From: Schmidtea polychroa
Taxonomy: Eukaryota
Reading direction: 5' to 3'
Assembly (NCBI GenBank): GCA_044892525.1
Contig: CM097885.1
Span: 3,164,001 to 3,228,000, forward strand
DNA: 64,000 nt
Position numbers and translations under genes: made by a program
Notes under the pieces: model-generated
What the model was told of the DNA's origin: nothing
Database searches by the model: none
Seen by the model: the letters and a program-made list of their open reading frames with translations, nothing else
Shown here: positions 13,795-55,177 of the stretch, piece by piece
Position numbering within the stretch: the stretch's first letter is position 1
How the letters are laid out: each line of letters begins with the position of its first letter

Positions 13795-14915
13795 AGTAGT
13801 AGTAGGATGTGTCCCCGCCAGATCAGGTCCCCTCCAGATCACATATACCCCTCCCCCCCCCGGGAAAAAATTTTATTTTTTTTTAGAACGATGCCTAATA
13901 TTTTTAGAACTATTACGTAATCAATGCCTAATATTTTTAGAACGATGCCTAATATTTTTAGAACTATTACGTAATTTTTTTTTAAATTAAGTGATCCAGC
14001 GGGGACCTACTTTTTTTCTTCCCAAAAGTAATGTTCCCGCCAACAAATTTTATTAACCGATACCTCATCTTAAAGCTCAGTCCAAGACCTTTCGAATGAG
14101 CTATAGGTATCTTATATATCTTTAATAGTTTTAATGTTATTAACAATTGATGACCACCATCTTTTCAACGTTAAATTATTATTATTTTTCAAAATATTAT
14201 TAAGTGATCCAGCGGGGACCTACTTTTTTTCATCCCAAAAATTATTGTTCCCGCCAACATATTATATTGATCGATAGCTTATTTTAAAGCTCTGTGCAAG
14301 AACTTTCTAATGAGATATAGATTTTTATCATACGATGACTCATCACATTTTTAGAACAAAGACAATGACTCATCACATTTTTAGAATGATGTCTAATATT
14401 TTAGAATGATGCCAAATATTTTTAGAACGATGTCTATTATTTTTAGAATGATGTCTAATATTTTAGAATGATGCCTAATATTTTTAGAATGATTACGTCA
14501 TAATTTTAGAACGATGTCTATTATTTTTAGAATGATGCCTAATATTTTTAGAATGATTACGTCATACTTTTAGAACGATGCCTAATATTTTAGAATGATG
14601 TCTATTATTTTTAGAACGATTACGTCATACTTTTAGAACGATGCCTAATATTTTTAGAATGATGCCTAATATTTTTAGAACGATTACGTCATACTTTTAG
14701 AACGATGCCTAATATTTTTAGAACTAATACGTAATCAATGCCTAATATTTTTAGAACGATGCCTAATATTTTTAGAATTAATAATTTTGTTTTAATTATC
14801 GATGATTATATAATTTGTTTAAATCATTGATTATATAATTCTTCTGTTTTAATTATAGAATACGTAATAATATAATTTTGTTTAAATCGTTGATTACATA
14901 TTATTATTTTCTAAG

Positions 14916-15001
<86 letters not shown>

Positions 15002-15010
15002 GCATATATA
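13795..15010 (+). repeat. Left terminal inverted repeat of the Polinton
   Basis: Near-identical reverse complement of 28598-29965, apart from copy number of an internal repeat of about 21-22 bp and (ATT)n length. Confidence 0.96.
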
Positions 15011-15173
15011 CTCCTAGTTTATCCGACAAAATATTCTGTCCCCCTATGGGTACTGCACACAAATGTACTACTCACATTCAACAAGTCACAAGGGTACTGT
15101 TCACAAAATTACTGGTAAAAATATTCAAGACAAAACTTTCTAAATTCTAAATATTATTCTTTAAATATACACT
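15011..15173 (+). repeat. Inner, more diverged inverted repeat (left), partner of 28435-28597
   Basis: TATATA|CTCCTAGTTTATCCGACAAAATATTCTGTCCCCCTATGGG...; about 14 mismatches to its partner in the first 89 nt (manual count). Confidence 0.9.
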
Positions 15174-15417
15174 AAAATTTATTAACACATTCACATTCAT
15201 CATCTCCACAGTTCATAACATTTTCAACAACATGATCTATACAATCCCTATATACACACGGTTCAGTATCCGTAAATTCCTCCATAGGTTCATCAATTTC
15301 TTGAATGCTTTCCTCATCATCTTGAGTGTTTTCTTCATCTGTTTCAACATTAAAATAACTGTGAAAGTCTAGCAGACATAATTTTCCAAATTGGAGAATA
15401 CACATCATTATTATCAA
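15172..15417 (-). CDS. Small acidic, Cys-containing Polinton ORF (possibly a spliced or frameshifted terminal exon)
   Basis: ETDEENTQDDEESIQEIDEPMEEF...CGDDECEC; overlaps the end of ORF 15350..15769; preceded by an acceptor-like CTTTCACAG. Confidence 0.45.
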   Translation of the reverse strand: MIIMMCILQFGKLCLLDFHSYFNVETDEENTQDDEESIQEIDEPMEEFTDTEPCVYRDCIDHVVENVMNCGDDECECVNKF

Positions 15418-15769
15418 CTTTATATCCTTGGATTGTAATTGTTATATACCAATTTTCGTTTTCTTTGAAACTGATTTCATCAAAGGAATCATAAAATTTT
15501 GCATATCGGTTGTTGAAAAATGCATTTTGATTGCATGATAGATTTGTATTCAACCTTTTGAAAACATCATCTATGGTTTTAATATCTAACATTGAAAGCG
15601 TGCCGGTTAAGAATTGAAATTGGGTAGGAATTAGCTTGATCGGTGACACCAATTTCATATTGATTTCTTCTTTTAAAAAATACATTTTGTAGTTGTGGAA
15701 CATTTGAACAGGTTGTACAAGTTCTGGAACTACTTTTGGTTTTTCAGTGCTTGAAATTTTCTTGGTCAT
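15350..15769 (-). CDS. Polinton accessory protein, 139 aa, possibly an OB-fold ssDNA-binding protein
   Basis: ATG-initiated ORF with TATAAAA and a CCAAT box upstream. The C-terminal beta-strand pattern FYD...WYITITIQGYK...SPIWKIMSA is reminiscent of viral SSBs; the function is a guess. Confidence 0.6.
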   Translation of the reverse strand: MTKKISSTEKPKVVPELVQPVQMFHNYKMYFLKEEINMKLVSPIKLIPTQFQFLTGTLSMLDIKTIDDVFKRLNTNLSCNQNAFFNNRYAKFYDSFDEISFKENENWYITITIQGYKVDNNDVYSPIWKIMSARLSQLF

Positions 15770-15877
15770 TGTGAATTATGATTAAAATGAAATGGTACAG
15801 GGTTTTTATACCTTTGACAATTGTTTATCATCCAATCAGATTGCAGTATGTTTTTGTTTTAATTGAATGATAAATAA

Positions 15878-16342
15878 TTAATTAAGTGATAATAAAAAAT
15901 CTAAAAATTCTTTTCCTTCAATTATTGATTTAATTTCAGATATGATATTATCAACTATACATTTGTAATCAATATTTTTTATTCCAAGAATTACTATCTT
16001 ACCGCTAGCGAATATATTTACACACAGAGGGTTATATTTTATATATCTCAAAGCTGGAAATAATTCTGGTTCATAAAAGCATGGTATTAATTTAGCTAAT
16101 TTATTTAAATTACAAGAAAAACCTATATCGGAAGTTATGGTTATCGATTGTATTTCTAAATCATAAACATTATATTCACTAGCTTTGATTATTTCCTTAC
16201 ACCCCATAATTCTACATTTACCAGTTTTGAAATATATTATTGGATATTTATTACTTCTATTGATAAGTTGTTGTGGTTTCCCTATTGGAAATACCATTTT
16301 TGATACATCAGTTTTTGCCCTGTAATTTATATTTGAAAGCAT
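15878..16342 (-). CDS. TATA-binding protein (TBP)-like protein, 154 aa, Polinton-encoded
   Basis: Repeat 2 IQSITITSDIGFSCNLNKLA...YEPELFPALRY...VNIFASGKIVILG matches TBP IQNMVGSCDVKFPIRLEGL...YEPELFPGLIY...LLIFVSGKVVLTG. Repeat 1 is shortened (SNIN...IIYFKTGKCRIMG). Confidence 0.92.
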   Translation of the reverse strand: MLSNINYRAKTDVSKMVFPIGKPQQLINRSNKYPIIYFKTGKCRIMGCKEIIKASEYNVYDLEIQSITITSDIGFSCNLNKLAKLIPCFYEPELFPALRYIKYNPLCVNIFASGKIVILGIKNIDYKCIVDNIISEIKSIIEGKEFLDFLLSLN

Positions 16343-16446
16343 TTTAATGAAATAATTTTAAAAACTTTGATATATATAGGTATTTAAAAACAGAGTTCAT
16401 TTAAATTATCAATATAAACAATAATTATATAGTTTAAATTTAAAAA

Positions 16447-17085
16447 ATGGAATTACGAAATGATGCAGTATACCAAATCGTTGGTCCAAGTGGTAGCGGG
16501 AAAACTTTATTTGTTTGTAAATTACTAAAATCAAATTTGTTTAAAACAAAATTCAACAATATTTATTGGCATAGGGGCGCCGACGAAGAACACGGATTGA
16601 CGCAATCAAGTTTCTGTCAGTTGAAAAACATGAAAATAGTAAAGGGCTTTGATAAAAACTGGTCAAGTCGTTTGAAGAAAGATGATGTCATCATTATCGA
16701 TGATTTGTATCAAGAAGCCAATAAAGAAAAGGACTTTAATAATTTATTCACAAAAATCAGCAGACATGTTGGTGTAACAGTTATTTTCATAACACAAAAT
16801 CTATTTCATCAAGGTGGTGCACATCGAACACGTAATTTAAATGTACAATATTTAGTTATTTTCAAGAATCCTAGAGATGCAACTGTCATTGATTTTCTTG
16901 GACGACAAGCATACCCTAATAACCGTAATTTTCTTATCAGTGCATTTCAAGATGCCACGAAAATACCGCATGGGTATATATTTCTCGATTTCACACAACA
17001 ATGCCCTGATGATATACGGGTAAAAACAGATATTTTCAACCCAAAAGGTGCCATGGTATATAAACAAAGTTCAAAACAAAGTTGA
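16447..17085 (+). CDS. A32/FtsK-like genome packaging ATPase
   Basis: Walker A GPSGSGKT, Walker B VIIIDD, ISRH arginine motif, FITQN. Confidence 0.95.
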   Translation: MELRNDAVYQIVGPSGSGKTLFVCKLLKSNLFKTKFNNIYWHRGADEEHGLTQSSFCQLKNMKIVKGFDKNWSSRLKKDDVIIIDDLYQEANKEKDFNNLFTKISRHVGVTVIFITQNLFHQGGAHRTRNLNVQYLVIFKNPRDATVIDFLGRQAYPNNRNFLISAFQDATKIPHGYIFLDFTQQCPDDIRVKTDIFNPKGAMVYKQSSKQS

Positions 17086-17098
17086 AAACATATAAATC

Positions 17099-17593
17099 AT
17101 GTTTTCAAAAACAAGGATATCGGGTAAAAAACAACCAAAAGTTCCACCAACAACTAGTTATACTCCATCTAAAGATCTTATTACAGAAAATTTTCCTGCA
17201 ATGAATCTTATTTCGAAAAATCCTAAACCTAAACCTAAAAGTAAAACCACTAAGAAAGTAAAAGTTGTTAAAAATCATCGGAGTTTCCCGTTTTTCAATA
17301 CATTGTTAAAGGCACCAAGTATGAAAAGAAACAGTATTTTGCAATCTTTTCCAAATTATGTTGTCGATGATTTACTCGATATTATACTTAAAGTAGTCAA
17401 AGGCAAGATTAAAATCAGTAAATCTAAAAAGCAATTATTGAGTAAACATAGGAAACCTTTGCTATCATTAGTAAATAATAAAAATCGTCAACAAATGAGA
17501 AAAATTATATATAAACAACAAGGGGGATTTATCGGTGCATTGATACCTTTAGCAATATCATTATTAGGTGGAATAATAGGAAGTCGATCATAA
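17099..17593 (+). CDS. Basic virion core-like protein with a C-terminal QQGG/F hydrophobic tail (probable protease substrate)
   Basis: Lys-rich; ends KQQGGFIGALIPLAISLLGGIIG, resembling the GGF-hydrophobic tail of adenovirus pX-like precursors. Confidence 0.75.
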   Translation: MFSKTRISGKKQPKVPPTTSYTPSKDLITENFPAMNLISKNPKPKPKSKTTKKVKVVKNHRSFPFFNTLLKAPSMKRNSILQSFPNYVVDDLLDIILKVVKGKIKISKSKKQLLSKHRKPLLSLVNNKNRQQMRKIIYKQQGGFIGALIPLAISLLGGIIGSRS

Positions 17594-17596
17594 ACA

Positions 17597-17824
17597 ATGG
17601 GTGCTAATCCTTCATTACCAGACATTAAATTTAATATTAAATCTTCTTGTTGTAATGGAGAAGATTTGGACGAACCCGGAAGACGAAGCCGGTTTTGGTG
17701 GAGTGGCAAAATTAAGGAAAAGAGTTCCGAATTCGAAAAAGGAAACTCAGAAGTGGTTATCAGACCAGCTTGCGTACAGTTTGAACAAACCAATGCGGAA
17801 ACGATTCCCAACAAGAACATATAA
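17597..17824 (+). CDS. Small, putatively myristoylated protein overlapping the integrase 5' end
   Basis: ATG 3 nt after the previous stop in ACAATGG context; MGANPS fits MGxxxS; SSCC motif. Confidence 0.5.
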   Translation: MGANPSLPDIKFNIKSSCCNGEDLDEPGRRSRFWWSGKIKEKSSEFEKGNSEVVIRPACVQFEQTNAETIPNKNI

Positions 17825-18710
17825 AACATATGGAATAAATGATTTATGGCAAATGGATTTGATGGAGATGATACCCTATTCGAAAATTAACAATGGGTAT
17901 AAATATATTTTAACATGTATTGATGTATTCAGTCGGTTTGCCCGAGCAATACTCGTCAAGGCAAAATCTGCAGATGAAATGTCCAAAGCTGTTAATCATT
18001 TATTTAAAGATGGACATCCTAAAAACTTGCAAACTGATTTAGGTATTAATATTATTATTTTTATTATTATTATTATTATTTTAGGTAAAGAATTCTACAA
18101 CAGTAAAGTCAAGCAAATCCTCAATAAATTGAAAATAAACCATTACTCAGTACATTCTCAATACAAAGCTGCTCATGTTGAAAGATTTAACCGAACTTTG
18201 AGAGATAGATTAAAGAAATTATTCGTGCATCAAGGTAATAAAAAATGGGTATTGGTTTTACCAAAAATAATAACCAGTTATAATCACTCATCACATCAAG
18301 GACTGAATGGATTAAGGCCGATTGATATCACGTCAAAAACAATCTATTCTAAAAAACCTGAAAAAATTACAAAACCGAAATATAAAGTAGGTGACCATGT
18401 TAGAATTAGTAAAATTAGTGCATCACCATTTATTAAAAATTTCGATACAAATTGGAGTGATGAAGTCTTAGTAATTTCAAAAATAAATACTAAACAGAAT
18501 CCTGTAATGTATGTCATCAAAGACAATGATAACAATATTGTACAAGGAAAATTTTATGAACAAGAATTACAAGTTATTCCTCCCCCAAAAGTATTTAGAA
18601 TTCAGAAAATATTGAAAACTAAAAATAAAGGCAAGGATAAACAATACTATGTCAAATGGCATGGTTATCAAAACCCATCATGGATATCAGAAAAGGACCT
18701 AGTAAAGTGA
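17655..18710 (+). CDS. Retroviral-type (c-)integrase with C-terminal chromodomain; 42-nt intron 18043-18084; about 337 aa spliced
   Basis: DDE triad in WQMDL, LQTD, HVERFNRTL; splicing restores TDLGKEF; chromo-like YYVKWHGYQNPSWI. Likely start MEKIW at 17655. Confidence 0.95.
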   Translation: MEKIWTNPEDEAGFGGVAKLRKRVPNSKKETQKWLSDQLAYSLNKPMRKRFPTRTYKTYGINDLWQMDLMEMIPYSKINNGYKYILTCIDVFSRFARAILVKAKSADEMSKAVNHLFKDGHPKNLQTDLGINIIIFIIIIIILGKEFYNSKVKQILNKLKINHYSVHSQYKAAHVERFNRTLRDRLKKLFVHQGNKKWVLVLPKIITSYNHSSHQGLNGLRPIDITSKTIYSKKPEKITKPKYKVGDHVRISKISASPFIKNFDTNWSDEVLVISKINTKQNPVMYVIKDNDNNIVQGKFYEQELQVIPPPKVFRIQKILKTKNKGKDKQYYVKWHGYQNPSWISEKDLVK

Positions 18711-19723
18711 ATTTTTATACTATTTTACCAAGCAATAGTTGCCCGCTTATTCATCCAGATAATCAAGCCAGTAAATTCATGGTCAATCTCCAGAATCCGA
18801 TTTCTTTAAATGGTGACTGGGAAGTTGCACTGCAAGATTTTACATTCGTGTACAATACATTCCCATTTTATAGTCAATGTAAGATTGATTTCAAAAGGAA
18901 TGCTATGAAAACATGTAGTGGTATCTTTATTATCAGTAATTATGATAAAACATATCATATTCCGAATCAAATATTAGATCAGCATTGCACTATGTTTTAC
19001 AAAGATGGATTAAATATCAGTTGTGATTTTAAACCATTTACAATAACATTCGAATATATTGAAGATGCCAGACGAATGGGTTGCAATAAGTTGAAAAATG
19101 AAGTTATGGAAACAGAATATTTATTACGCTTTGATCTATTTGAAGCAAACAGTGTAATGAGAGAAGAAATCAAAATTTCAGTGTCGTATAATAATGAAGT
19201 TGAAGAATCATTCACCTTCGCTGACGAATTATATATTGATAAACTTGATGTGTTACTTAAATATTTAAAGTATAATTGTTCACACATATTTAAAAGTTTG
19301 GATATTGTGAAAGATTTGTTATTTACCTTCAGTTTGAATGATGACATTTGCGAAGTTACATTTGATAAAAATTTGACAAATACACTTGGATTAGAGAAGC
19401 AGCAATATCGGGAAAAATCGGCTGGTATACGTAAACCAAGAATACTTGAACATCATCAACAAATGTTCATATATACTAATATTATTGAGCCTATAATAGT
19501 TGGTGATTCCAGTGTTCCTCTATTGAAATCGGTGTGGATTGGAAAATATGAACATGATGAAGTTGTCAATATAAATATAGATAATCCCATGTATTTACCA
19601 ATTTCAAGCTCATGTATAAACAATATAGAAATAAATATTCGTGACGATAGTGGAAAACTTATAAACTTCCCAAAAGACTCAAAAACTCATTTGACACTAC
19701 ATTTTCGTAAAGTAGATGGCTAA
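18656..19723 (+). CDS. Minor capsid (penton-like) protein
   Basis: FYTILPSNS...F.VNLQNPISLNGDWEVAL and C-terminal MFIYTNIIEP.IVGDS..PLL...IEINIRDDSG...LTLHFRK are typical of Polinton minor capsids. The start may be 18680. Confidence 0.88.
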   Translation: MAWLSKPIMDIRKGPSKVNFYTILPSNSCPLIHPDNQASKFMVNLQNPISLNGDWEVALQDFTFVYNTFPFYSQCKIDFKRNAMKTCSGIFIISNYDKTYHIPNQILDQHCTMFYKDGLNISCDFKPFTITFEYIEDARRMGCNKLKNEVMETEYLLRFDLFEANSVMREEIKISVSYNNEVEESFTFADELYIDKLDVLLKYLKYNCSHIFKSLDIVKDLLFTFSLNDDICEVTFDKNLTNTLGLEKQQYREKSAGIRKPRILEHHQQMFIYTNIIEPIIVGDSSVPLLKSVWIGKYEHDEVVNINIDNPMYLPISSSCINNIEINIRDDSGKLINFPKDSKTHLTLHFRKVDG

Positions 19724-20078
19724 TTCCGATATTATTAGTATGTATAGTGATAGCCAATCTGGTGGTGAATTACCATATTTTATTGGTAAACAGTACGGAT
19801 CAGGTTGGTTAAAAACAATAGGGAGATTTGCACTTCCTATTCTTAAACGTATTGGTAGTTTTGGCATGAAAACTGCAAAAGATGTGATTATGAATGAACA
19901 GAAAATATTACCATCCCTAAAAACAAATGCTTTAGCGGAGTTAGGGAAGGTTCTACCCGGAGTTGCTGGTATGTTTCAAAAAGATACACCTCCAGTCCCA
20001 GCTCCAAAACGTAAAGGGCATGGAATATCGCGTATAAACAAACGAATGAAAGGACATGGAACTATATTTGCAAAATGA
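19716..20078 (+). CDS. Small virion protein with amphipathic helix (pVI-like membrane-active precursor)
   Basis: QSGG and QYGSG candidate cleavage sites followed by amphipathic WLKTIGRFALPILKRIG; basic tail; lies just before the major capsid gene. Confidence 0.72.
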   Translation: MANSDIISMYSDSQSGGELPYFIGKQYGSGWLKTIGRFALPILKRIGSFGMKTAKDVIMNEQKILPSLKTNALAELGKVLPGVAGMFQKDTPPVPAPKRKGHGISRINKRMKGHGTIFAK

Positions 20079-21298
20079 TTTGTGGTAAATCCGAATTATG
20101 TATATTTGATAGACCATCGCCCCAGGCAGTAATAGAATTTGGTGCCTTTGAGGAAGTTTTTCCTATGAATTCAATTACTGATAGTAGAAATGATATCGAG
20201 TTTTATATTAATGGTTCGCAAACTGAATATTTAGATTTGAACGATACTTTATTGACTGTTCAGATCAAGGTTGTAGATAAAGATAGAAAGGTTTTGGATG
20301 CCAATGCAGATGTATTACCAAACAATTTCATGTTTCATACTCTGTTTAAAGATGCAGTGTTGGGATTTAATAATATCAAGATTGAGGGTGGAAATAATAC
20401 ATTCATTCACAAGGCTTTGATAGAAACTATTTTAAATTACAATTCAGATACTAAAAATACCTGTCTTACACCTATGGGTTATGCAGCAGCAGATGATGAA
20501 AGAAAAAAGTGGGTTAAAGGTTCAAAAGTATTCACTATGTGCTCATCATTACAACTTGATTTTTTGGATCAACCGAAATATTTACTACCGGGAGTTAATA
20601 TACATATTAGACTGAAAAGGTCCGATTCTGCATTGTCTCTTACTAGTGCAACTGGTGCACCAATATGTCAATTAGTTGATGCAAAATTATTGGTGAGAAG
20701 AGTTCGAGTAGACCCGTCAGTATTAGCTGGTCATCAATTGGGGCTTAATTCAAAACATGCAATTTATCCTTTAAAAACAAAGGAAATTGTACAATTTGCT
20801 ATTGCTAAAGGTGCTTCATCATTCTATAAAGAACAAATATTTGGTGACAGAAGAATGCCTAATTTTATTCTGGTAACATTTCAAAGTGAAACGCAATATA
20901 ATGGATCGTATACTGCTTCCAGCTCAATTTTCAAAAATTTTGGTGTTACTTCATTGACTTTATCGAAAAATACTGATTATAGAGAAACATATACTCAAGA
21001 TTTCGAGAATGATAATTACTGTGCGACATATATGCAGAGTATTGTTAGAAATCTGGGTTATTTAGATAAAAACTTGAATTGCGGAATAACTCTTGAAGAA
21101 TTTAAAAGCAAATACCCATTTTTCACATTTGTTCTAGCTCCCGATTTTGATTTAAATCAGAGTCAATTACCACAAAACGGGAATTTACGACTGGATATAA
21201 AGTTTGCAAAGGCCATTACTGAACCAGTACATGTTATAATATATGGAGTATTTGAAAATGAAGTTCAAATTACTGCAAATAGAACCGTGCTAGTATAA
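20075..21298 (+). CDS. Major capsid protein (double jelly-roll, hexon-like)
   Basis: N-terminal KSELCIFDRPSPQ, IEFYI...EYLDLNDT, QPKYLLPGV.IHIRL, GNLRLDIKFA motifs of Polinton MCP; 407 aa. Confidence 0.92.
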   Translation: MICGKSELCIFDRPSPQAVIEFGAFEEVFPMNSITDSRNDIEFYINGSQTEYLDLNDTLLTVQIKVVDKDRKVLDANADVLPNNFMFHTLFKDAVLGFNNIKIEGGNNTFIHKALIETILNYNSDTKNTCLTPMGYAAADDERKKWVKGSKVFTMCSSLQLDFLDQPKYLLPGVNIHIRLKRSDSALSLTSATGAPICQLVDAKLLVRRVRVDPSVLAGHQLGLNSKHAIYPLKTKEIVQFAIAKGASSFYKEQIFGDRRMPNFILVTFQSETQYNGSYTASSSIFKNFGVTSLTLSKNTDYRETYTQDFENDNYCATYMQSIVRNLGYLDKNLNCGITLEEFKSKYPFFTFVLAPDFDLNQSQLPQNGNLRLDIKFAKAITEPVHVIIYGVFENEVQITANRTVLV

Positions 21299-21710
21299 AT
21301 GTATACAGAAACACCAAAAAGTTGTCATGGAGTAAGGTTTTCAATACTGTTTAATTTATTAAAGTAGTTCTGTTCAGGTCAATAGAATTGGAAAACAGAT
21401 ATTGGGAAATGAATTTGTAGGAGTTTTTCCTCTCGATAAAATCCCATATTTGAGCAATAATCAAGCCATAATCGTCAATACTCAATCGTCTCATCTTGGT
21501 GGAAAACATTGGATTGCTATATATGTGAAACCTAGTAATATATTCGTGTTCGATCCTATGGGTTTCTATTACCCTGCTTTGTTGGTATCAAAACTACAAA
21601 CAATGGGGAAACCTATTGTATATAATAAAACAATGTTTCAAAATCCCTTGACACAAACATGCGGTCAACATTGTTTAGCTTGGTTGTTGTATAAAAAATT
21701 TGATGATTAA
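21299..21710 (+). CDS. Adenain-like cysteine protease; exons 21299-21331 and 21378-21710 (about 121 aa)
   Basis: GKHW, FDPMG and Q...TCGQHC give the His/Asp/Cys triad. The track ORF lacks an ATG; a 46-nt GTAAGG...TTCAG intron links the ATG directly after the MCP stop in frame. Confidence 0.88.
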
Positions 21711-21734
21711 TAAATGTATTTTGTATCCTTTGTT

Positions 21735-22035
<301 letters not shown>

Positions 22036-22119
22036 TTTAATTAAATTTATTTTGAAAAATATTATTATCTAACTACACAAACATTGTGCATGCACAAAGA
22101 TATGCAATCCCATTTGATA

Positions 22120-22212
22120 CCATTTGATTGGCTGATAGAGGAAAAAGTATTCAGGAATGTGTCTTAATTCTGATTGGTTGAGACATGGAAATATTCCTGT
22201 TCTATATAAACA
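22120..22212 (+). promoter_or_regulatory. Candidate polymerase-gene promoter: two inverted CCAAT boxes and a TATA box
   Basis: GATTGG at about 22126 and 22172, TATATAAA at about 22203, roughly 60 nt before ATG 22269. Confidence 0.55.
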
Positions 22213-22268
22213 TTGACAATTCTAAAATTCGTCATAATTATTCTTAAATTTACAAATTTTAAATTAAA

Positions 22269-25200
22269 ATGGACGCTGATTTACACAAAATTTTGAATGC
22301 CATGTTGATGGGTGAAAATGGTAAATTATTTAGTTATTATTATTATTATTTTTATTTATTATTTTAGAGAATTTATGGTACCAAGTGACTGAAGATGATT
22401 CAATTTTGAATGTTGATAGGATTTTCGGTAAATTTAAATATTTTAATTTTTATGAAATTATTATTTTATTTAGAACCTATTATAATTAGCGACGATGATG
22501 ATGTCGTGTTTATTGGGCAAAATGATGCCCCGGATAATGATGCCTTATTTGTTAGGCAAAACAATGTTTTTAATGAACAAAGTAAATTTATTTTATTTTA
22601 GTATATTATTTTTTAAAAATCATTTTAGTGTTTAATGTTGACATGGACGCTGAAATCGATGTTCCAATTAATAATGATTCTATTGAGGAGATGAATAATG
22701 CACTGACTTCTATCGATGAGTTGAATTATGTGGATAATACAATCGAGGAGCTTGTTAATGTGGATAATGCCCTCACTTCTATTGAGGAGGTTGCTGATAA
22801 TGAATCAGATTCCGACATGGAATCACGATGTTAGTATTTATTTATTTTTATATATTTATTTATTTTTTAAAAACCTTGTAAATTTCTTAAATACTTTTTA
22901 AACATTTTCTTTAAAAACTTATTTATAAAAACTTATTATGAAAATGAAGAAAATATTATGATGAAATTGAAAATGTTATGTTGACTAAATGATGAAAATA
23001 TTATGATGATGAAGAAAATGATGAAAATAATATGATGAAGAAAATGATGAAAATATTATGATGAAGAAAATGATGAAAATATTATGATGAAGAAAATGAT
23101 GAAAATATTATGATGAAGAAAATGATGAAAATATTATGATGAAGAAAATGATGAAAATATTATGATGAAGAAAATGATGAAGAAAATGTTTAAAAAGTAT
23201 TTAAGAAACAATAGTTTTAAAATATTCCTTGTAGTTTGCAATGAGCAACTACATTAGTTAAAATAATAATAATAATAATAATAATAATATTAAAAATAGT
23301 AATAAAAATATATCTTGTAGTCTGCAGTGAGCATGCAGCTACATATCTCTTTTATTATGATTGCCCCAATAAATGTAGTCTGCAGTGAGAATGCAGCTAC
23401 ATATCTCTTTTATTATGTTTGCCCTAATAAATGTAGTCTGCAGTGAGCATGCAGCTACATATCTCTTTTATTATGATTGCCCCAATAAATGTAGTCTGCA
23501 GTGAGCATGCAGCTACATATCTCTTTTATTATGTTTGCCCTAATAAATGTAGTCTGCAGTGAGCATGCAGCTACATATCTCTTTTATTATGATTGCCCCA
23601 ATAAATGTAGTCTGCAGTGAGCATGCAGCTACATATCTCTTTTATTATGATTGCCCCAATAAATGTAGTCAGCAGTCAGCTGCATCAAATATTTATTACA
23701 TAATAAATACCATTTATTAAATATAGTCTGCATGCAGCTGCATCAAACTATTTATTACGTAATACATACCCTTTATTAAATGTGTCTAAATGCAGCTGCA
23801 ACAAACTATTTATTACGTAATAATTAACCCTTATTAAATATAGTCTGCATGCAGCTGCATCAACTATTTATTATGTAATAATTATAATCTTTAAATGTAA
23901 TCTGCATGCAGCTGCATCAATAATGATAATAATGATAATAATAATAATAATAATAATAATAAAATCACACATTTATAGTTTACAAGACTTTATTAATATA
24001 AATACAATTTCATGATTAATATTAATTGATAAATATAATTAACAGGCAAATTATATCCACATTACTGCCAGGCTTCAACTGGTCACTCAAATTTATGTCA
24101 CAAAGTGATGAAAAAATATTATGGTCGTAAATTTTATGGCATCAAGTACTATATATGCCCAATATGCGAGACTTCCCATAGCATTAAATATTTAGAGTTT
24201 TACAGTATACATAAATCCCATTTAAATCAGTTCTCTTTAAATAAAAAGGATTTATTTAACAAATTGCGAAATACCGCAAAACCTATAATTAAAACTAATG
24301 TAAATAATACAAAACCTGTAAATAATATTACAAAACCTGTAAATAATAATACAAAACCTGTAAATAATATTACAAAACCTGTAAATAATAATAATACAAA
24401 ACCTGTAAATAATATTACAAAACCTGTAAATAATAATACAAAACATGTAAATAATATTACAAAACCTGTAAATAATAATAATACAAAACCTGTAAATAAT
24501 ATTACAAAACCTGTAAATAATAATATAAAACATGTAAATAATATTACAAAACCTCTAATTAATAATGTTATTAATGTAAATAATAATTTAAAAAGACCTG
24601 CTGTTAGTATTGAGTCTGATGCTCCCTCTAAAATTAATAAATTAGAACAAATAACTGTGGTTAATAGTATTCAAGTAGGCGGTTCAGTCGATATTGACGA
24701 TGAACCTGAAATCGAAATTGATTTTAAGGGGGTTCGAAAGAATCTAAGATTTAATGAAGAAAAGGATAACATCGTTCAAATATCCATAACCGATAAAATC
24801 GTTAATAAGTTAAATCATGAAATAAACAGAATGGGGTCGGTGAAAATACAATTCTCTGTTTTGATTCAATTTGAAAAAGATGGTGAAATTAAAGATAATT
24901 TCTTCTCGAATAGGGCAGAGGCTTTTTCAGATAGTTTTCTAAGTGAGGGGGTTCACAAATTAAATAATAAAATAGAAAAATTCGCATATTTGGGTAGTGG
25001 ATGGCGGGTTGTTAAAATCAAAGAAATAGATTTTATATTAACAAAATTTACACATATGAATAGGCTAGCTGGACATAGTTATATCCCCACCCCATCATCT
25101 TTAAATTCTAAAAATGCAATAGTAAACGTTAAAAACACTGATGATATGTGCTTTATATATAGTATTTTAGCACTTTTAAAACGTAATGTCGTACATATAA

Positions 25201-28200
25201 ATAGAAATAGAGTTAGTTCCTATGAAAATTATCTCAACGAGTTAAATTTTGACCCCATTTCCGACTGTCCAATGAAACTATGTGATATTCCTAAATTCGA
25301 GATGAAAAATAAAGATTTAAATTTAGCAATAAATGTTTTAACTTATAGAACGACCCCTGCTAAGCCTTTTGAAAATATAGTTGACGATAATTATATTCCA
25401 CATCATCCTCAATTAGATATTATTCACCGATCTAAGGTTATAGGTGGTGAACCCTTATACTTACTTTTATTGGAAGATGGTGATAATTTTCATTATACTG
25501 CAGTTTTTAATTTGCAAAGATTAATGAACTCGCATCGTAGTAGCTCTTGTAGTGTTCAAATTAAAGTGAACTGGTGCCCCCATTGTCTCAATGGTTTTCG
25601 ACATGAAAAAGCATTTGATATTCACGTTGCCTTATGCAGTAAGAACCAGATAGGTACTACTTTATACACGCTACCCAATGATAAAAATTTAATTTTTCAA
25701 AATTATGCGAAAACCATAACCCCGCCATTCGTGATATATGCAGACTTTGAATCAATTTTACCGGGGGATATAATACACCATCAAAAGCATTTGCCAATAA
25801 CAGCAGGTTTATTATTAATAAATAATTATAATAACTCTAAATTTTATTATGAGTTTGTTGGGGATGATTGTATCTTATCTTTCTTGCGTAAGGTGGAGGA
25901 AATTGCTATGACAATTGTCCTGCCATATTACGAAATTAATGGGAAAAAGCCCATGCAAACCTTGTCTTTCGCTGAAGAGCGGGCCTTTCGTGATTCCAGA
26001 ACCTGCTACCTTTGTAAAAAATTTATTAGAAATAGAGTTAGGGATCATTGCCACTTCTCAGGTAAGTATCTTGGTGCTGCCTGTAGGAAATGTAATGTGT
26101 CTCGGCGAATTCAGAGACAGTTACCTGTGGTTTTTCATAATTTGAGGGGGTATGATCTCCATCATATTTTGAAGTACGGTCTCAATAATTTTCCTTCTTG
26201 GGAATTAAATATTATTCCGACCACTACCGAGAAATTCATCTCTCTCATCGCATACATTAACAAACTGTCTGTTCGTTTTATTGACAGCATGCAGTTTGTT
26301 AATTCGTCTTTAGCAAAAGCAGTTAAGACTCTTTCCGATCTGCCTTTAACTTCTTCTGTTTTTGATGGCGCAATTATTCGAGCCAAAGGTATCTTTCCTT
26401 ATGACTTTGCCACATCTCTTGAGGTTCTGGAATCGACTCTTGAATTGCCACCTATCTGGGATTCTGTGTCTAATGATGAATATGCATTAGCTCAAGTTAT
26501 TTGGACTCAGCAAAACTGCAACAACATGTTAGATTACATGCTAACTTACCTTAAATTAGACGTGTTTCTCCTCGCAGACTATTTCCAACAATTCCGTGCA
26601 AAGGCCATTGCTTACAATGGTCTTGAGCCTCTTAATTTCTATGGCATTCCCGGTATGTCATGGGCCTCTGCGCTTATGACATTAACGGAACCCATTGAAC
26701 TTTTGCAGGACATGGAAATGTTTAATTTCTATGAAGGAGGGATACGGGGTGGGTTAACATTTGTTAACAAACATTATGTTGCAAGTTCTGAAGACACAGA
26801 ACTCTTGTATATTGATATTAATAACTTGTATGGTTGGGCCTTAAGCCAAAATCTGCCTTATGCTGACTTTGTTTGGGTGTATGATGATCTTGATTCTGTC
26901 TTGAATGAATGTATGAATGCTGATATCGATAACCTTCCATATGGTTATACTATGGAGGTAGATATCGATATCCCTGATTGTTTGCATGACTTTCTGAATG
27001 ATTTTCCTCTTGCTCCTGAAAAGATGTGCCCGCCAAATTCTAAAGTTGAGAAGCTGATGCTCACGCATTGGCCGAAGAAGAACCATGTTCTTCATTGGCG
27101 ACTTCTCAAGTTGTATATAGAATTGGGGGCTATTATTAAAAATGTACATAGAGCAATCAAATTTAAGCATGCACCCATTTTTAAATCTTACATAGACAAA
27201 AACACTAATTTGAGAGCCAATTCGACATGCGAATTATATAGGGATCTATACAAATTATTTAATAATAGTCTGTATGGGAAATCCGTAGAAAACCTTAAAA
27301 AACGGATGAATTTGAGGTTATGCAATTCATCTGAAAAGATGATTGTATATGCTTCAAAGCCGACTTTCAAGAAATCTATCAAAATTGATGATGACTTGAT
27401 TGCTGCACATCTATATAAGGATTCTATATGTTTAGACAGGCCTAGTTACATTGGCCAAACGGTGCTAGACCTGTCTAAACTGAGGATGTACCAGTTACAG
27501 TATAAAGAATTGGCTAAATATAGAAATGAATTTAAATGTGAGATAAATATCGTTGCCGGTGACACTGACTCCTTTTTCTTAGAGATAAACCATTGTAAGC
27601 TTGACACTCTTTTGCCGGCAATGATTCGTGACAATCTTTTAGACACTTCCAACTATGACCCTGCACATCCCTTATACTCTAGAAACCTTGATTCGGTGAT
27701 AGGTAAATTTAAAGATGAAAGTAAAGGTCTAGGGTATAAGGAATGGGTTTTCTTAAGACCCAAGTGCTATAGTTTGTTAGGGGCTAAAGATCATTTAAAA
27801 GCAAAAGGAGTCAGGTTAATAGGTACAGAAATTAGGCACGATTCATATTTAGAATGCTACAATAACAACGTAGTATTTTCTGTGCCACAAAGTAGGATAG
27901 GGACGCGGAACCATCAATTGTACACATTTAAAAACAATAAAATCGCGTTGACAAACAACGACGACAAGCGGTTTTGGGTGGGGAAAAATTCCAGTCTCGC
28001 ATTTGGTCATTATTTAGCACTAGATGATATAAATGATGATCAAATATTTGAAGAAGTTGGGCCACTATTCGGAGGATTAAGTCCAGATTTTGTTTCTGGT
28101 GATGAGGAAGTGGGTCCACTTTTCAATGGTTTAAGTCCAGATTTCGATTCTGGTGATGATCCTAATGATAAAAGAGATATAGATGATATTTTATTGTCAG

Positions 28201-28205
28201 ACTAA
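22269..28205 (+). CDS. Protein-primed DNA polymerase B; predicted exons 22269-22320, 22368-22427, 22474-22581, 22629-22829, 24046-28205 (about 1526 aa)
   Basis: ExoI YADFES, ExoII FHNLRGYD, pol motifs YIDINNLYG, KLFNNSLYGK, AGDTDS; endonuclease VII-like RDHCH..GKYLGAACRKCN. The large exon is certain. The 5' exons are predicted from four GT-AG introns that are all phase 1. Confidence 0.9.
22990..23190. repeat. 26-bp tandem repeat ATGATGAAGAAAATGATGAAAATATT
   Basis: About 7 copies visible, in the predicted long pPolB intron. Confidence 0.9.
23316..23920. repeat. 58-bp palindromic minisatellite (6-7 copies plus about 4 degenerate copies)
   Basis: Unit ATGTAGTCTGCAGTGAGCATGCAGCTACATATCTCTTTTATTATG(A/T)TTGCCC(C/T)AATAA, starts 58 nt apart (23373, 23431, 23489, 23547, 23605). 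Confidence 0.93.
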
Positions 28206-28434
28206 ACTGTGATAAATGTTAATATATCTTTAATAAAACGTTTCTTCTACATTGTTGTATTATCTAAAATTTTTATTGAAAACTTGTTATAGTTTTCACA
28301 TTTCTTACAAATGTTAAACACTTGTATAAATATATTTATTAATATTGATAAAGTTTTTATAAATCATGTTTAACTATTGAAAGAAATTTTTATTTGAAAT
28401 GTATGTATGAGCTCACCACTACATATATGAGTTG

Positions 28435-28597
28435 AGTGTACATTTAAAGTATAATATTTAGAATTTAGAAAGTTTTACCTTGAATATTTTTACCAGTACC
28501 TTTGTGAACAATAACCATGTGACTTGTTGAGTGTGAGTAGTACCCTTGCTAGCAATACCCATAGGGGGTCAGAATATTTTGTCGGATAGACTCGGTG
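28435..28597 (-). repeat. Inner, more diverged inverted repeat (right)
   Basis: Reverse complement TATATA|CACCGAGTCTATCCGACAAAATATTCTGACCCCCTATGGG... matches 15011-15173. Confidence 0.9.
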
Positions 28598-28606
28598 TAT
28601 ATATGC

Positions 28607-28701
<95 letters not shown>

Positions 28702-29965
28702 CTTAGAAAATAATAATATGTAATCAACGATTTAAACAAAATTATATTATTACGTATTCTATAATTAAAACAGAAGAATTATATAATCAATGATTTAAAC
28801 AAATTATATAATCATCGATAATTAAAACAAAATTATTAATTCTAAAAATATTAGGCATCGTTCTAAAAGTATGATGTAATCATTCTAAAAATATTAGGCA
28901 TCGTTCTAAAAGTATGACGTAATCATTCTAAAAATATTAGGCATCATTCTAAAAATAATAGACATCGTTCTAAAATTATGACGTAATCATTCTAAAAATA
29001 TTAGGCATCATTCTAAAATATTAGACATCATTCTAAAAATATTAGGCATCGTTCTAAAAATATTTGGCATCGTTCTAAAAATATGACGTAATCAATCTAA
29101 AAATATTAGGCACCGTTCTAAAAATATTAGGCATCGTTCTAAAAATAATAGACATCGTTCTAAAAATATTTGGCATCGTTCTAAAAATATGACGTAATCA
29201 ATCTAAAAATATTAGGCATCGTTCTAAAAATATGATGAGTCATTGTCTTTGTTCTAAAATTATGACGTAATCATTCTAAAAATATTAGGCATCATTCTAA
29301 AATATTAGACATCATTCTAAAAATAATAGACATCGTTCTAAAAATATTTGGCATCATTCTAAAATATTAGACATCATTCTAAAAATGTGATGAGTCATTG
29401 TCTTTGTTCTAAAAATGTGATGAGTCATCGTATGATAAAAATCTATATCTCACTAGAAAGTTCTTGCACAGAGCTTTAAAATAAGCTATCGATCAATATA
29501 ATATGTTGGCGGGAACAATAATTTTTGGGATGAAAAAAAGTAGGTCCCCGCTGGATCACTTAATAATATTTTGAAAAATAATAATAATTTAACGTTGAAA
29601 AGATGGTGGTCATCAATTGTTAATAACATTAAAACTATTAAAGATATATAAGATACCTATAGCTCATTCGAAAGGTCTTGGACTGAGCTTTAAGATGAGG
29701 TATCGTTCAATAAAATTTGTTGGCGGGAACATTACTTTTGGGAAGAAAAAAGTAGGTCACCGCTGGACCAATTAATTTAAAAAAAATTACGTAATAGTTC
29801 TAAAAATATTAGGCATCGTTCTAAAAATATTAGGCATTGATTACGTAATAGTTCTAAAAATATTAGGCATCGTTCTAAAAAAAAAATAAAATTTTTCAGA
29901 CCGGGGGGGGGGTATATGTGATCTGGAGGGGACCTGATCTGGCGGGGACACATCCTACTACTACT
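28598..29965 (-). repeat. Right terminal inverted repeat of the Polinton
   Basis: Reverse complement of 13795-15010, about 150 bp longer because of extra internal repeat units. Confidence 0.96.
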
Positions 29966-30015
29966 GATAGTCAAGTGATTTTTTCTAAAAGTTGTATTTT
30001 TTTGTTTTTAAATCA

Positions 30016-44463: not shown

Positions 44464-47400
44464 TTAGAAAAATCAAAATATTTTCTCCTTGATCGCTTAT
44501 ATGATCTAGCAAATGATCATCATGAAATGTAAATAATGTCGTCCAGTTGACCTTTGGGACGTCAATTATGATGACATCAGTGATGCGTATCCGTTATAAG
44601 GTCACTGGCATCCTGTTTTTATTTGATTCAATTTTTACAGAATCCTTCATCTTGGAAACGAACGAAAATTTAGTTTTCTTAAAATTTTTCAAATATTTGA
44701 CTAATAGCTTTCAGCTTTCCACGGTTGACTTACGCCATTTGAGGTCCTGTCAGTCGAATAAGATGCTAGAATTCGTGATTAATCACAATGACTAAAGGGA
44801 CACCCTGCAAGTTGAAATAGATTTTATACAGAAATATGAAAGCCTCATCGAGTTTAGGTCTATGTAAGGACATGCAATTACAATATTATCAAATGCACGA
44901 GTCGCTGTAGCAGATGGGCACATAACTACCCTAGTAAGGTTCTTAGAAGGACCCCATTTAAGACATATTAGTGTATAAACAGGAAAAGAATCACATAAAG
45001 AACCACAAGACAATTCAAGATGTGGATGTACTGGATTCATCAAGAATGCACAATCTCAACACTCCTCTTATCTGTGAAGGTATCAACGAAGACAACATAC
45101 AGATTACTCGCATTTCTTGCTTAGCCTTCTTAACATTTGATGAAACATTAAAATTTACCAACAATATGTCTGTGACTGAGACTAATAAAATTCCATCTTT
45201 CTAATCCAGCTTTCAGAATTCAGCCCTAGAGTAAGGCAAGTAGGCATGAGGACCATACCTATGTGAGCACCTAGCATAAATTCTGATTTTTCATTGTATA
45301 ACTATAGGAACATATTCAAAGCCAATACTCAGTCACAACTTAAAGCAATATGAACCGAAATACCTACGTAGGCCTTCTGCTGTTACAATAACTCATAGCT
45401 TGTTACCATTATTGTCGATCAAATCCCTATGTTGATTTCCAACTTCCCATTTGGAGAAGGATAAAAACATAGAATTGTACTCATTGGTGCTTTCAATCAG
45501 TAACGGGATTTATCCGTATGGCTACCTCATTCGGTTATATTTCATTTAATCACTCCTTCAATTACAAAGATCTTTGGATTAGGTTCCTTTAACCATCCGT
45601 TTAGTTACGTGGACCTGGGGGTTATATCTCACTTAATCACTTATCCAGTCATTTGGACTGATAAATTATATTTTATGAATTTATCCATTTATTTGTTTAT
45701 TTCTTTAGTTGCGTGTTTGTTTAATTTTATATACATTGGCTTTATAAATATGTGGTCGGGGTTTGTATGAATTAGGTTCAATGATACAATTGTATGGGTC
45801 ACAGGGTACGCTAATAGGTCATTTTAACTTGATGAAAGGTATGATGACGTACCCCTAAGTAAGGGATGTATAGATAGATATGAATGTGTGAGTATATATC
45901 AATGATCAGCAGGTATATGATAACAGCTGCACAGACCGCGACGCGTCCGATTCAATCATCAGTAATAAGCGAAAGATTGAATCAACGCCGTAACCAGGAT
46001 TATCTGATAGCCATGCCGAATTCACGAGTAAAACCCGGGCGAACAGTGAAGTAGATAACCATGTGAAGCTTCTAGCAGTTATAATGTAGAGAAATTAGAT
46101 GCACATAGTCTTTGGACAATGCGATGTAAGACGTAAATGATATGCTGGCTCACCCCAAGTGAATAGAACATTAGATAATTGAGTCCAAGATCCCCGTTAC
46201 AAACAGAGAGTTGTGACACCTATTTGGCAAGGCTTGACAGAAGGATTTGGACAAGGTAGTTGCTCTAGGCGTAATTCTGCCGGAGGGCTGATGGATAACC
46301 CAAATGTTGAAAGACTGTAAAATGATTCAGTATTTTTTTTATGATAGAACTACATTATTTTTGATTATTATTTCTTTTCTTTTCTATTTTTAATTGCTAT
46401 TCTGTGGATAACCTTTATGAACTGTGATTCGACATTAAAGTGCTATGATATTTGGGGATAATCTTCAACAAGTACCTTCCCAATTCGATATGGTGAGAAC
46501 TTTATAAAGTTTGTAATGAAAACAAGGCATGGAGTTATAAATGGGTGATGATAAGCTTTTTAGGGAGGAAAGAGCAAAATTATTATTGACAAATGCTGGG
46601 AAATTTAGCTGTGGTATGGGCATTGATAATAACTACTCATAACTACTCATCACTTGATTTATGTATTATTTTTGTCTATTCTTCATTTGAGAATATTATT
46701 GATGGATTCAGATTAAATTTTGGTTGGTTGGCCAAGAAAACTGAGTTCTACCATCACGAAGCTGAACGGTTGAAGTTGAACTGCCGAGAACAATAGATAA
46801 CTTCGTTTAAGCCAGAAGCGATTTATTTTCAGAAAAGGCAAAACTAAAAGAGCATGCAAGATAAACATACAATCATTGACGTATAAAGATCTTATACCGC
46901 CCATGGCCGGGTTAAATTTGACACCTCCAAGACCTACAAAATAAAGACGTAATGACTAACGTACTAGAGGTTGTGATAAGTTTGTCAGCCTTGATATATC
47001 CATCCCTTTCTTGCACATACACAAAAGGTGTATACAAACTTTTTCGACAGAAAATAAAAAAGATTGAAAAACCTCCAATAAATTGGTGGACAATAAGAAC
47101 TGCACTGACCAAAAAAAGTAAATATATAATGCATTGCTTGTGAGTGACAGAAAGAGGAGCCTTTGCATAGACTTTCAGATACGGTAAGAAGTATTTTATT
47201 TAACATGACAAGGAACCAATACGACTGAATTAAGAAATGTTAAGTGTGGAAAACGAAAGATTTCATTAGAATAATCTGTTATTATGGTGATATGCAATAT
47301 GATGCAGTAAACGTCACATTTCGTACAATGTCCTTAATTTTAATTTCTTTTCAGACTATCGATCAATATTTTGTTCTATATTTCCCGGAATTTGTCTGAA

Positions 47401-47612
47401 TTATTGCAATTATTTTCACCCATTTGAATTTATCATCGAGTAATGAATAATTTTCTCACTTTAATGAAGATTCTTACCACCTTCATTGTTAATTTTATCA
47501 AAGTTTAAAGAATATTTCTCTTTTCATTGCTTACCACTTTAGAATTTTTATCAAAATTTATGATAATTTGACTAATTCAATGATAAATTTAATTAATATA
47601 TATTAATATATA

Positions 47613-50600: not shown

Positions 50601-50801
50601 GTTGTTAGTATGTGGTTGTAAGTGTTTAGTATTTAGTTGTTAGTATGTGGCTGTCAGTTGTTGTTTGAAACCTAGGGGTTAGTACATGGTAGCTAGTTAA
50701 TGGGTAGGTGGGGGGTTGAGTGTTAGCAATATCCTTACGACCAGTACCCTTACGACCTGTACCCTTAAGGGGTCAAAACATCCTGTCGGATAAACTCAGA
50801 G
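47613..50801. mobile_element. Non-coding 3.2-kb element with TATATA-flanked inverted ends related to the Polinton inner inverted repeats
   Basis: TATATA|CTCTGATTTTATCCGACA... and ...TGTCGGATAAACTCAGAG|TATATA; no ORF-track ORFs inside; degenerate internal repeats. Confidence 0.8.
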
Positions 50802-51066
50802 TATATATAATAAAACTGATCAACAATAAGTATTTATTGAATGTGATTTTTACTTTGCAATAATAAGTCAGTAGTTATCATTTAAAAGAAGAATGTTTTG
50901 TAAATTAGAATTCATTAGTATTTCATTGTAATTTAAATTATCCTCCTTTCCACGTGGTGTTTTAAAGTGGTTGAGTTGTGGTTTTTTGATGAAAATCAAC
51001 ATTTTTGTTAAATTTAGACATTTTGAAAAGGTTTTTCTACTGATTGTAATTAAAATTATTATAGAA

Positions 51067-53325: not shown

Positions 53326-53629
53326 TTATAGAAGCTGTATAAAAAAATATTAATTTAAAAAAATACAATTCATAAAATACAATAAAGAATATTTAGTTGA
53401 TTGTAAGTATTTATTGTAAATATAAATATAATCCTTATTTTCATATTTAACCAATAATTTCATGTGGTCATTGATTAATTGACGAAGATTTGCATCTAAA
53501 ATTAACATTGAAAATCCCAGAAAACTTTCATCTTAAATTGACTTTAACTTTAATATTTTAAACCATTGATTACTTAATTTTAAAATTAGACATTATTTTA
53601 TCTATTTAACCAATAATTTCATGTGGTCA

Positions 53630-54400: not shown

Positions 54401-54519
54401 GAATTATTATTAAAATTATTAAAATATTTCATAAAAATTTCCATTAAAAATTAACTTAAAAAATTATTCCATATAAATTTTCATTGAAAAATTTCAATTT
54501 CAACTTTTTGTTAATAAAT

Positions 54520-55170: not shown

Positions 55171-55177
55171 TTTTTAG

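Follow-up and report, generated by a model that had tools for sequence, protein, structure and literature searches.

Vertebrate Polinton/Maverick elements have an AGT end motif, a 6-bp target site duplication (TSD), and terminal inverted repeats (TIRs) of 46-1,447 bp, according to the account in PMC8097293. A 64,000-nt stretch of the planarian Schmidtea polychroa genome (contig CM097885.1, positions 3,164,001 to 3,228,000), referred to here as the window, contains an element that resembles them in its AGT ends, 6-bp TSD, TIRs of 1.4-1.5 kb, integrase, ATPase, and size, here 16 kb. Unlike known Polinton/Maverick elements, it carries a TBP-like ORF, and many gene-less palindromes of 9-20 kb reiterate a single module from the interior of its TIR. 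A literature search found no description of such a reiterated Polinton TIR module. The original description of Polintons is said to mention non-autonomous copies.

In adenovirus, as described in PMC4404914, IVa2 binds a packaging domain made of seven A-repeats that lie inside the left ITR (nt 220-400). The planarian module may be compared to it, as in both cases short repeated motifs stand slightly inward of the tip of a linear genome that is protein-primed and codes for a packaging ATPase. The planarian motifs, however, are part of the TIR at each end, 1.2-1.4 kb away from the tip, and the comparison is an analogy only. The gene-less palindromes may likewise be compared to the snap-back defective genomes of AAV (PMC8235507), and to defective-interfering genomes generally, as palindromic, helper-dependent derivatives of one parent end; unlike the AAV snap-back genomes described there, they are 9-20 kb long and mostly gene-less, sit integrated between 6-bp TSDs, and are inherited. 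Teratorn, according to PMC6431247, similarly has another inverted pair within its long arms, which surround a viral core; its inner TIRs serve integration as genuine transposase ends, whereas the inner pair here was not found to bound any insertion. Tc1/mariner-type transposons and MITEs share with the module a TA at the 5' edge and facing pairs a few kb apart, but the planarian flanks are fixed, with no TA-bounded insertions and no transposase found between the pairs read.

The Polinton and its inner inverted repeat

The element is a Polinton/Maverick by its long AGT-ended TIRs, 6-bp TSD, integrase, and packaging ATPase (Table 1). GATAGT flanks it on both sides (13792-13797 and 29966-29971); with this TSD, the left end reads two AGT units and the right end three. 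A search within the window aligns the arms in one piece, 13795-15176 against 29965-28432. The rve match of the integrase ORF sits at the Pfam curated cut-off. At least 102 near-identical open copies of the 407-aa ORF are present in the genome. The 1365-aa ORF shows polymerase-like motifs and is presumably a family B polymerase. The Pfam profile search left the 407-aa ORF and a 355-aa ORF without a match, and found no protease among the ORFs scanned.

Table 1. Features of the window (positions counted from its first nucleotide).
Feature	Position	Strand	Basis or remark
Polinton/Maverick copy, family A, AGTAGTAGGATG ends	13798..29965	.	16.2 kb; AGT-repeat ends, rve integrase, A32-type ATPase
Left terminal inverted repeat, takes in inner module	13798..15176	+	alignment and binned identity
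(ATT)n tract of left arm, adjoins module on outside	14920..15001	+	sequence
Left inner module	15005..15176	+	TATA-like box, TATCCGACA core, imperfect 16-bp palindrome, ~15-bp repeats
TBP-like ORF, 154 aa, candidate module binder	15878..16342	-	Pfam PF00352, E 5e-15
Packaging-type ATPase	16447..17085	+	Pfam Pox_A32, E 2e-7
Retroviral-like integrase with chromodomain	17655..18710	+	Pfam rve, E 1e-7; Chromo, E 4.5e-4
Presumed major capsid protein, 407-aa ORF	20075..21298	+	label from size and place; no Pfam match
Presumed protein-primed family B polymerase	24108..28205	+	label from polymerase-like motifs; Pfam match Endonuclease_7 only
Right terminal inverted repeat	28432..29965	-	alignment and binned identity
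Right inner module	28432..28603	-	88% identical to left module
Mirror (ATT)n tract, right arm	about 28607-28697		sequence
Truncated half of gene-less family-B palindrome	47397..55178	.	matches to family-B loci; AGT end outside window
Family-B inner module copy, internal, fixed flank	47607..47705	+	1,560 copies with same flank
Family-B outer module copy, internal	50743..50807	-	fourth copy in window
Insertion with hAT-like ORF, interrupts family-B half palindrome	about 51067-53550		

A preliminary description of this locus had reported an inverted repeat that begins at TATATA just inside the (ATT)n tract of each arm, with an abrupt drop in identity between the arms at that point, and both observations hold. 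Read inward from 15011 and 28597, the arms differ at 14 of 89 nt and at 20 of 163 nt. In the two bins immediately outside the module (14798-14997) the arms are 100% identical; the figure falls to 86% and 83% in the two bins inside it, and is at background past 15176; the inner repeat is matched within the window at E 1.7e-60. The first ~55 nt are the best-conserved part of the left module. The leading TATATA is indeed present in the Polinton arms; it is not a fixed feature of the module, with CATATA in its place in 1,418 copies.

Genomic contexts of the module

Exact matches to a 22-nt core of the module number 15,762 genome-wide, against none for the reversed control. Seven disjoint classes, each with a fixed flank, take in 13,185 of these, and 2,577 (16%) fall outside them; the flank analysis draws on 95 loci together with exact-pattern counts and listings. 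Recurring flanks, with classes read by eye, were seen in 99 of 100 core matches taken by position, a sample that covers the first 3 Mb of C1 only. At least 1,834 module copies have an ATT-type flank. Loose contig ends before 15003-15005 repeat known flank classes.

Two inner copies bracket all genes of the Polinton, and both start with TATATA. Together with the reported use of internal TIRs for integration by Teratorn (PMC6431247), this arrangement speaks for a composite element, as had been proposed, whose core could also use its inner ends to move, with TA duplications. As far as exact-pattern searches can tell, that proposal is refuted, and we consider it almost certainly wrong. Inner ends linked to the Polinton core lie behind the (ATT)n of an arm in every case, 87 of 87 on the left and 25 of 25 on the right, and a search for cores bounded by inner ends alone thus found none among the 112. 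All 30 left-end loci, a set that includes the one in the window itself, continue further out with at least 340 nt that match the outer arm, and 10 of them have an AGT end within 1.5 kb. A pattern search for the module core behind (AAT)4, the reversed tract that a TA insertion into (ATT)n would leave on one of its sides, returned no matches; this search had no positive control of its own, the gapped pattern syntax having worked in a different search. A Pfam search of the core ORFs found no second transposase.

Gene-less palindromes of two families

The copy at 47613 had been taken for the terminus of an independent element. Its similarity to the left copy is as described (9 mismatches in 89 nt), but it is no terminus: 29 of 29 other copies share its outward flank over 200 nt, most of them over 400-500 nt, and the copy is internal to a family-B palindrome. 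Loci of family B match the window at 47397-49031, 49191-51066, and 53555-55178, and no ORF of 100 aa occurs in 44464-51254. In two intact family-B copies, 3.7-4.3 kb separate the AGT end from the counterpart of the minus-strand copy at 50743-50807, which the preliminary description had overlooked; the outward flank of this copy is common over the full 1.5 kb at 25 of 30 loci.

Of the first 16 facing end pairs of family B, 15 show a perfect 6-bp TSD and one agrees at 5 of 6 positions; family-A palindromes with AGT ends and a TSD are also among the examples listed. Nearly half of the positional sample (45 of 100 matches) lies between AGT ends with a 5-6 bp TSD, as judged with an end pattern that, having a high control count (5,069 against 2,582), was used only for listed places. 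For the class with a duplicated 15-mer, the AGT-end search did not find the ends of the class itself and showed further AGT-type ends instead. A 14.3-kb family-A copy contains, in the 6.7 kb of sequence examined, no 70-aa ORF and no match to nine core proteins, and none of nine family-B centres has an open stretch of 70 aa. The gene-less locus L095, whose arms are 99.6% identical, carries the module plus cargo common with family B (about 67%). Module copies number two in the coding Polinton and four to seven in the gene-less derivatives. The palindromes of families A and B are non-autonomous Polinton derivatives, with AGT ends, a 6-bp TSD, and no coding core in the parts examined. The module always lies within arms, and its carriers end in AGT repeats with 6-bp TSDs, the mark of the Polinton integrase. 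Among the options raised at the outset, it is the reuse of a Polinton cis element by satellite-like derivatives that is supported, the module being reiterated in AGT-ended, gene-less palindromes with 6-bp TSDs in two terminal families.

Each family-B arm has two facing module copies of the same allele 3.2 kb apart. Such pairs, the sharp 5' edge of the module at (T/C)ATATA across unrelated flanks, and a likeness of its internal ~15-bp repeats to subterminal binding sites would fit a transposon fossil: the end of a TA-targeting DNA transposon that entered ancestral arms on one or a few occasions and has since spread purely as a passenger. We consider this quite improbable. Three flank classes share flank beyond TATATA (20 of 25 nt, and 70-78% over 100 nt), and therefore arose by duplication across the edge; no ORF was found between the facing copies read; and the one unique flank among the 100 sampled matches occurs only once in the genome. 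Because the duplications carried flank across TATATA, the related suggestion that a transposon end was captured into one TIR and copied to the other has little support. The end of a TA-targeting cut-and-paste transposon or MITE was rejected, as homology runs past the end, flanks are fixed, and the (AAT)4 search showed no paired ends that interrupt one target. A Helitron 3' end (a palindrome followed by CTAG, on the minus strand) was also rejected: the CTAG is not conserved among variants, and flanks are fixed.

A candidate cis signal

Fixed flanks, copies behind (ATT)n, and the internal position of the 47613 copy in palindromes identify the module as an inner block of the TIR. It is the innermost ~170 bp of the long Polinton TIR rather than a transposon end, and probably a protein-binding cis signal, multiplied in the derivatives. 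Between the two families, the first 50 nt of the module are 88-90% identical and adjoining bins 60-78%, while other bins of the same alignment also reach 88-94%; over eight contexts, 35 of 55 module positions are invariant. Folding of seven module sequences as RNA gave z of +0.5 to +1.3 against shuffles, which is no signal, none of seven pairs showed a compensatory change, and Rfam gave no match on the module, so a structured RNA gene was rejected. Since RNA structure is lacking and the module is better conserved than its flanks, a double-stranded protein-binding signal is likely. The higher identity could also come from gene conversion among thousands of copies. A search of viral and metagenome collections gave no match to the motif, which says little for an animal repeat.

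A module without selected function would be no more than the edge at which the TIR ends inward. The (ATT)n/TATATA junction next to it would be slippery and a preferred point of template switching, so that the module would travel at the head of duplicated pieces, and conversion would keep its copies alike. Most flank classes do break at or near TATATA. One locus (L007) shows tandem duplication through (ATT)n, with three units of (ATT)n plus module in a row; one flank class carries a 15-nt duplication of the module head, part of the class being a tandem satellite; and one module class has a hairpin-forming junction (z -2.9). Alleles also move between arms, right-arm alleles being present in left modules at 28 of 30 loci. 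The module nevertheless recurs in both orientations, also in contexts other than (ATT)n, and in the comparison of two families it is kept better than anything around its position, so that we regard absence of function as rather unlikely.

For the module as a cis signal, the following course may be proposed. Protein-primed strand-displacement replication, running from the ends inward, would homogenize the arms; their inner edge would lag, which could have let the two inner copies drift apart to 88%. Left-left, right-right, and gene-less palindromes would result from template switching and from fold-back copying, and these would also have duplicated the module together with its flank. The coding element would use the module as a double-stranded, protein-bound signal made of a TATA-like box, a palindrome, and ~15-bp repeats, and extra copies might help derivatives compete for helper proteins, as in defective-interfering genomes. 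Most likely, the module is a putative double-stranded protein-binding cis signal, either a TATA-type promoter or a packaging/replication site. We rate a packaging or replication-enhancing site and an inward-firing promoter, served by host TBP or by the element's TBP-like protein, as about equally probable. An inward promoter would in addition drive antisense transcription into the TBP-like and polymerase genes at the two ends, and would yield fold-back RNA from the palindromes. A more specific proposal is tentative and may well not hold: that the module is the cis signal by which the helper, through its own TBP-like protein or its packaging machinery, recognizes this Polinton group, and that large numbers of gene-less, palindromic satellites of the defective-interfering type, in at least two terminal families, were selected to carry four to seven copies and so to outcompete or damp the coding element.

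The striking claim of a virus with two routes of mobility is thus not upheld. For annotation, the TATATA-led repeat carries a warning: in more than 15,000 places it would be miscalled as the end of a MITE. To our knowledge, the cis requirements of Polintons past the terminal few bases are unmapped. Natural gene-less derivatives reveal what must stay for copying and integration, and a module that both families have kept and multiplied offers itself directly as a candidate promoter or packaging site.

Repeated module in the Polinton arms

The arms of the coding Polinton form a single alignment block (13795-15176 against 29965-28432), whose inner ~170 bp, beginning at TATATA, had been described preliminarily as a second, inner pair of transposon ends. 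The inverted repeat itself stands, but not that headline reading. The reported mismatch counts were confirmed: the inner copies differ at 14 of 89 nt and at 20 of 163 nt, and the left one differs at 9 of 89 nt from the copy at 47613. So was the step in identity at TATATA, the arms being 100% identical over 200 nt outside it and 83-86% identical inside. A fourth copy in the window had been overlooked (see table). Genome-wide, a 22-nt degenerate core of this module has 7,922 + 7,840 = 15,762 exact matches in 781 Mb, against 0 for the control. The window itself spans G000:C1:3164001-3228000.

Features of the window
Feature	Position	Strand	Remarks
Polinton-type element	13798-29965		16.2 kb; AGT-repeat ends and GATAGT duplication
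rve integrase and A32-type ATPase	within 13798-29965		Pfam domain matches
TBP-like ORF	15878-16342	-	Pfam domain match; head-to-head with ATPase
Inner module, left	15005-15176	+	
Inner module, right	28432-28603	-	
Stretch in integrase ORF	18043-18084		42 nt, in frame, (ATT)-rich, bounded by GT..AG
Short inverted repeat	34731-35328		63-70 nt, ~90%; adjoins next feature
hAT dimerisation-domain ORF	35516-36043		
Cytochrome P450 ORF	42943-44463	-	intronless, 506 aa; Pfam E 2e-101
Truncated half of family-B palindrome	47397-55178		interrupted by insertion, then Tc1-type element
Family-B module	47607/47613	+	
Family-B module, fourth copy	50743-50807	-	
Insertion in family-B remnant	51067-53550		502-aa ORF; weak zf-C2H2_12 and DUF4371 matches
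Tc1/mariner element	55178-56458		94-bp TIRs (99%); open 341-aa DDE ORF

The Polinton core contains seven TATAAAC boxes, all on the forward strand (16413, 17059, 17510, 19615, 19660, 20033, 22205), several of them 34-56 nt upstream of ORF starts. The stretch inside the integrase gene resembles a mini-intron. Coding copies are numerous and young: the 407-aa ORF of the element has at least 102 near-identical open copies in the genome.

Modules also occur in tandem. One left arm (L007:1653-2029) holds three tandem units of (ATT)n plus module, and a tandem array at G000:C1:8682021-8730177 consists of ~1.02-kb units, each with (ATT)n and a module whose 15-mer head is duplicated (48 among the matches listed). 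This array, apparently a satellite grown from a piece of Polinton arm, is part of a duplicated-15-mer module class for which an end-pattern search found no element ends.

Flanks of the module and exchange between arms

The view of the inner module as a transposon terminus was not borne out, its flanks being recurrent and (ATT)n lying outside it in all core-linked copies listed. The 30 best matches to the left copy, the window's own included, all stand behind an ATT-type tract, and each aligns to 340 nt or more of the outer arm, with an AGT end within 1.5 kb in 10. A Polinton core bounded by the inner ends alone was seen in none of the 112 listed core-linked copies (87 left and 25 right, a subset because the patterns require exact spacing), all of which have (ATT)n outside. 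In a positional sample of 100 module matches (C1:72 kb-3.07 Mb), 99 were assigned by eye to recurring flank classes, and the sole unique flank occurs once genome-wide. Seven disjoint flank classes number 1,418, 1,318, 3,783, 1,834, 1,560, at least 2,487 and at least 785, together at least 13,185 of the 15,762 core matches (84%). Since a TA-targeting insertion into (ATT)n would leave (AAT)n at one end, an (AAT)n-flanked module was sought, with 0 matches genome-wide in a search that had no positive control; the ATT form of the pattern matched 20 of 95 loci in a separate search.

Upstream of TATATA, one pair of module classes is alike at 20 of 25 nt and another is 70-78% identical over 100 nt, so that duplications ran across the TATATA edge. 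The junction before one class of 1,318 copies consists of an imperfect hairpin of 36 nt that takes TATATA into its stem (z -2.9; L095:90-125, a gene-less family-A-type locus). The composite proposed preliminarily has a known example in the internal TIRs of Teratorn (PMC6431247), but its defining feature, insertion bounded by the inner TIRs, was seen in none of the 112 core-linked copies.

At 28 of 30 loci the left module has one or more alleles that also occur in the window's right module, nearly all within the first 70 nt, and among core-linked copies both ends carry the same module variants. The presence of right-module alleles in left modules indicates that exchange between arms extends into the module, fading inward; the identity step in the window copy is best read as the stopping point of the last arm homogenisation. 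Adenovirus-type replication, end-primed and strand-displacing, suggests by analogy that the arms would be copied from each other during such replication.

Gene-less palindromic relatives

The copy at 47613, previously taken for the end of an independent element, proved to be internal to a gene-less palindrome of a second terminal family (family B), with a fixed flank. The outward flank of 47607-like copies is common to 29 of 29 others over 200 nt and to most over 400-500 nt; for 50807-like copies, 25 of 30 loci have the flank in common along all 1.5 kb. Walking outward from two family-B modules, the AGTAGGTAGATAGT end was met at 3.7 and 4.3 kb. This end has 419 + 403 strict matches genome-wide, and facing pairs 8-20 kb apart show a perfect 6-bp duplication in 15 of the first 16 and a 5/6 match in the remaining one. 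No reading frame stays open for 70 aa in any of nine centres; one centre is in its own right a palindrome (99%). These ends, duplications and ORF-free centres make family B a set of palindromes devoid of genes, integrated in Polinton fashion; the copies listed have four modules each. The ORF of the insertion in the window's remnant is presumably hAT-like, and the Tc1/mariner element shows no relation to the module by BLAST.

Family A, to which the coding Polinton belongs, likewise has mirror copies, left-left and right-right (e.g., C1:51532993/51544647 and C3:94056882/94066059). A 14.3-kb derivative (C1:2860799-2875071) has a 6-bp duplication and seven exact modules; in the 6.7 kb read, its arms are 99.6% identical, the inner arm is ~67% identical to family B, and there is neither an ORF of 70 aa nor a match to nine core proteins. 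By eye, 45 of the 100 sampled module matches are enclosed by listed AGT ends that show a 5-6 bp duplication; the others, whose ends escaped the end pattern, are in the same flank classes. An 18.5-kb AGT-end pair (C1 2.30-2.32 Mb) encloses no exact module match, so this version of the module is absent from some AGT-end families.

Polinton-type elements are also nested in other Polinton cores (L092:54-221, L018, L020, L030, L076), with capsid-, integrase-, ATPase- or polymerase-like fragments directly outside their AGT ends, and further nested copies occur at G000:C1:2877357-2910904. Other AGT-type end families are found at G000:C1:684554, 1091559, 2297927-2316499 and 2835343.

Candidate functions and known systems

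Over eight contexts, mean identity in the first 55 nt of the module is 86%, and 35 positions never vary. Its parts are a TATA-like box, TATCCGACA, an imperfect 16-bp palindrome and repeats of 15-bp period. Folding was no better than for shuffles, with no covariation and no Rfam match. Between families the first 50 nt are 88-90% identical versus 60-78% in adjoining bins, in a noisy alignment in which some distant bins likewise reach 88-94%. The lack of RNA folding and covariation, together with the better-kept first 50 nt, fits a putative double-stranded binding site. A neutral alternative, in which the module is a template-switch point whose copies conversion has kept similar, we consider rather unlikely.

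One candidate role is that of a promoter, which would fit the TBP-like protein encoded by the element and the TATAAAC boxes of its core; the TATA-like box is one letter off TATAAAC and faces inward. The outermost genes run antisense to it, with their AATAAA signals immediately interior to the module (15183, 28232). The module may equally fit a packaging or replication site, being placed similarly to the adenovirus A-repeats inside the genome end, as outlined in PMC4404914. That helpers recognise it as a signal, and that selection acts on its copy number, is a tentative and somewhat doubtful proposal.

Non-autonomous Polintons as such are already known. Mobile Polintons without polB are reported from insects (10.1101/2025.02.07.637071), and planarian Polintons are described as piRNA-silenced (PMC8532177). 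The window element agrees with Mavericks in ends, TSD and TIR length, as far as these are described in PMC8097293, and snap-back AAV genomes, as sketched in PMC8235507, would be the nearest analogy for the gene-less palindromes. The accessible portions of 10.1101/2023.08.22.554363 and 10.1101/2024.01.15.575659 describe TIRs with no comparable module, and no description of a reiterated internal Polinton module was found in the literature searched, mostly outside subscription papers and Repbase. The genuine feature is an internal TIR module that the coding Polinton shares with related palindromes lacking genes.
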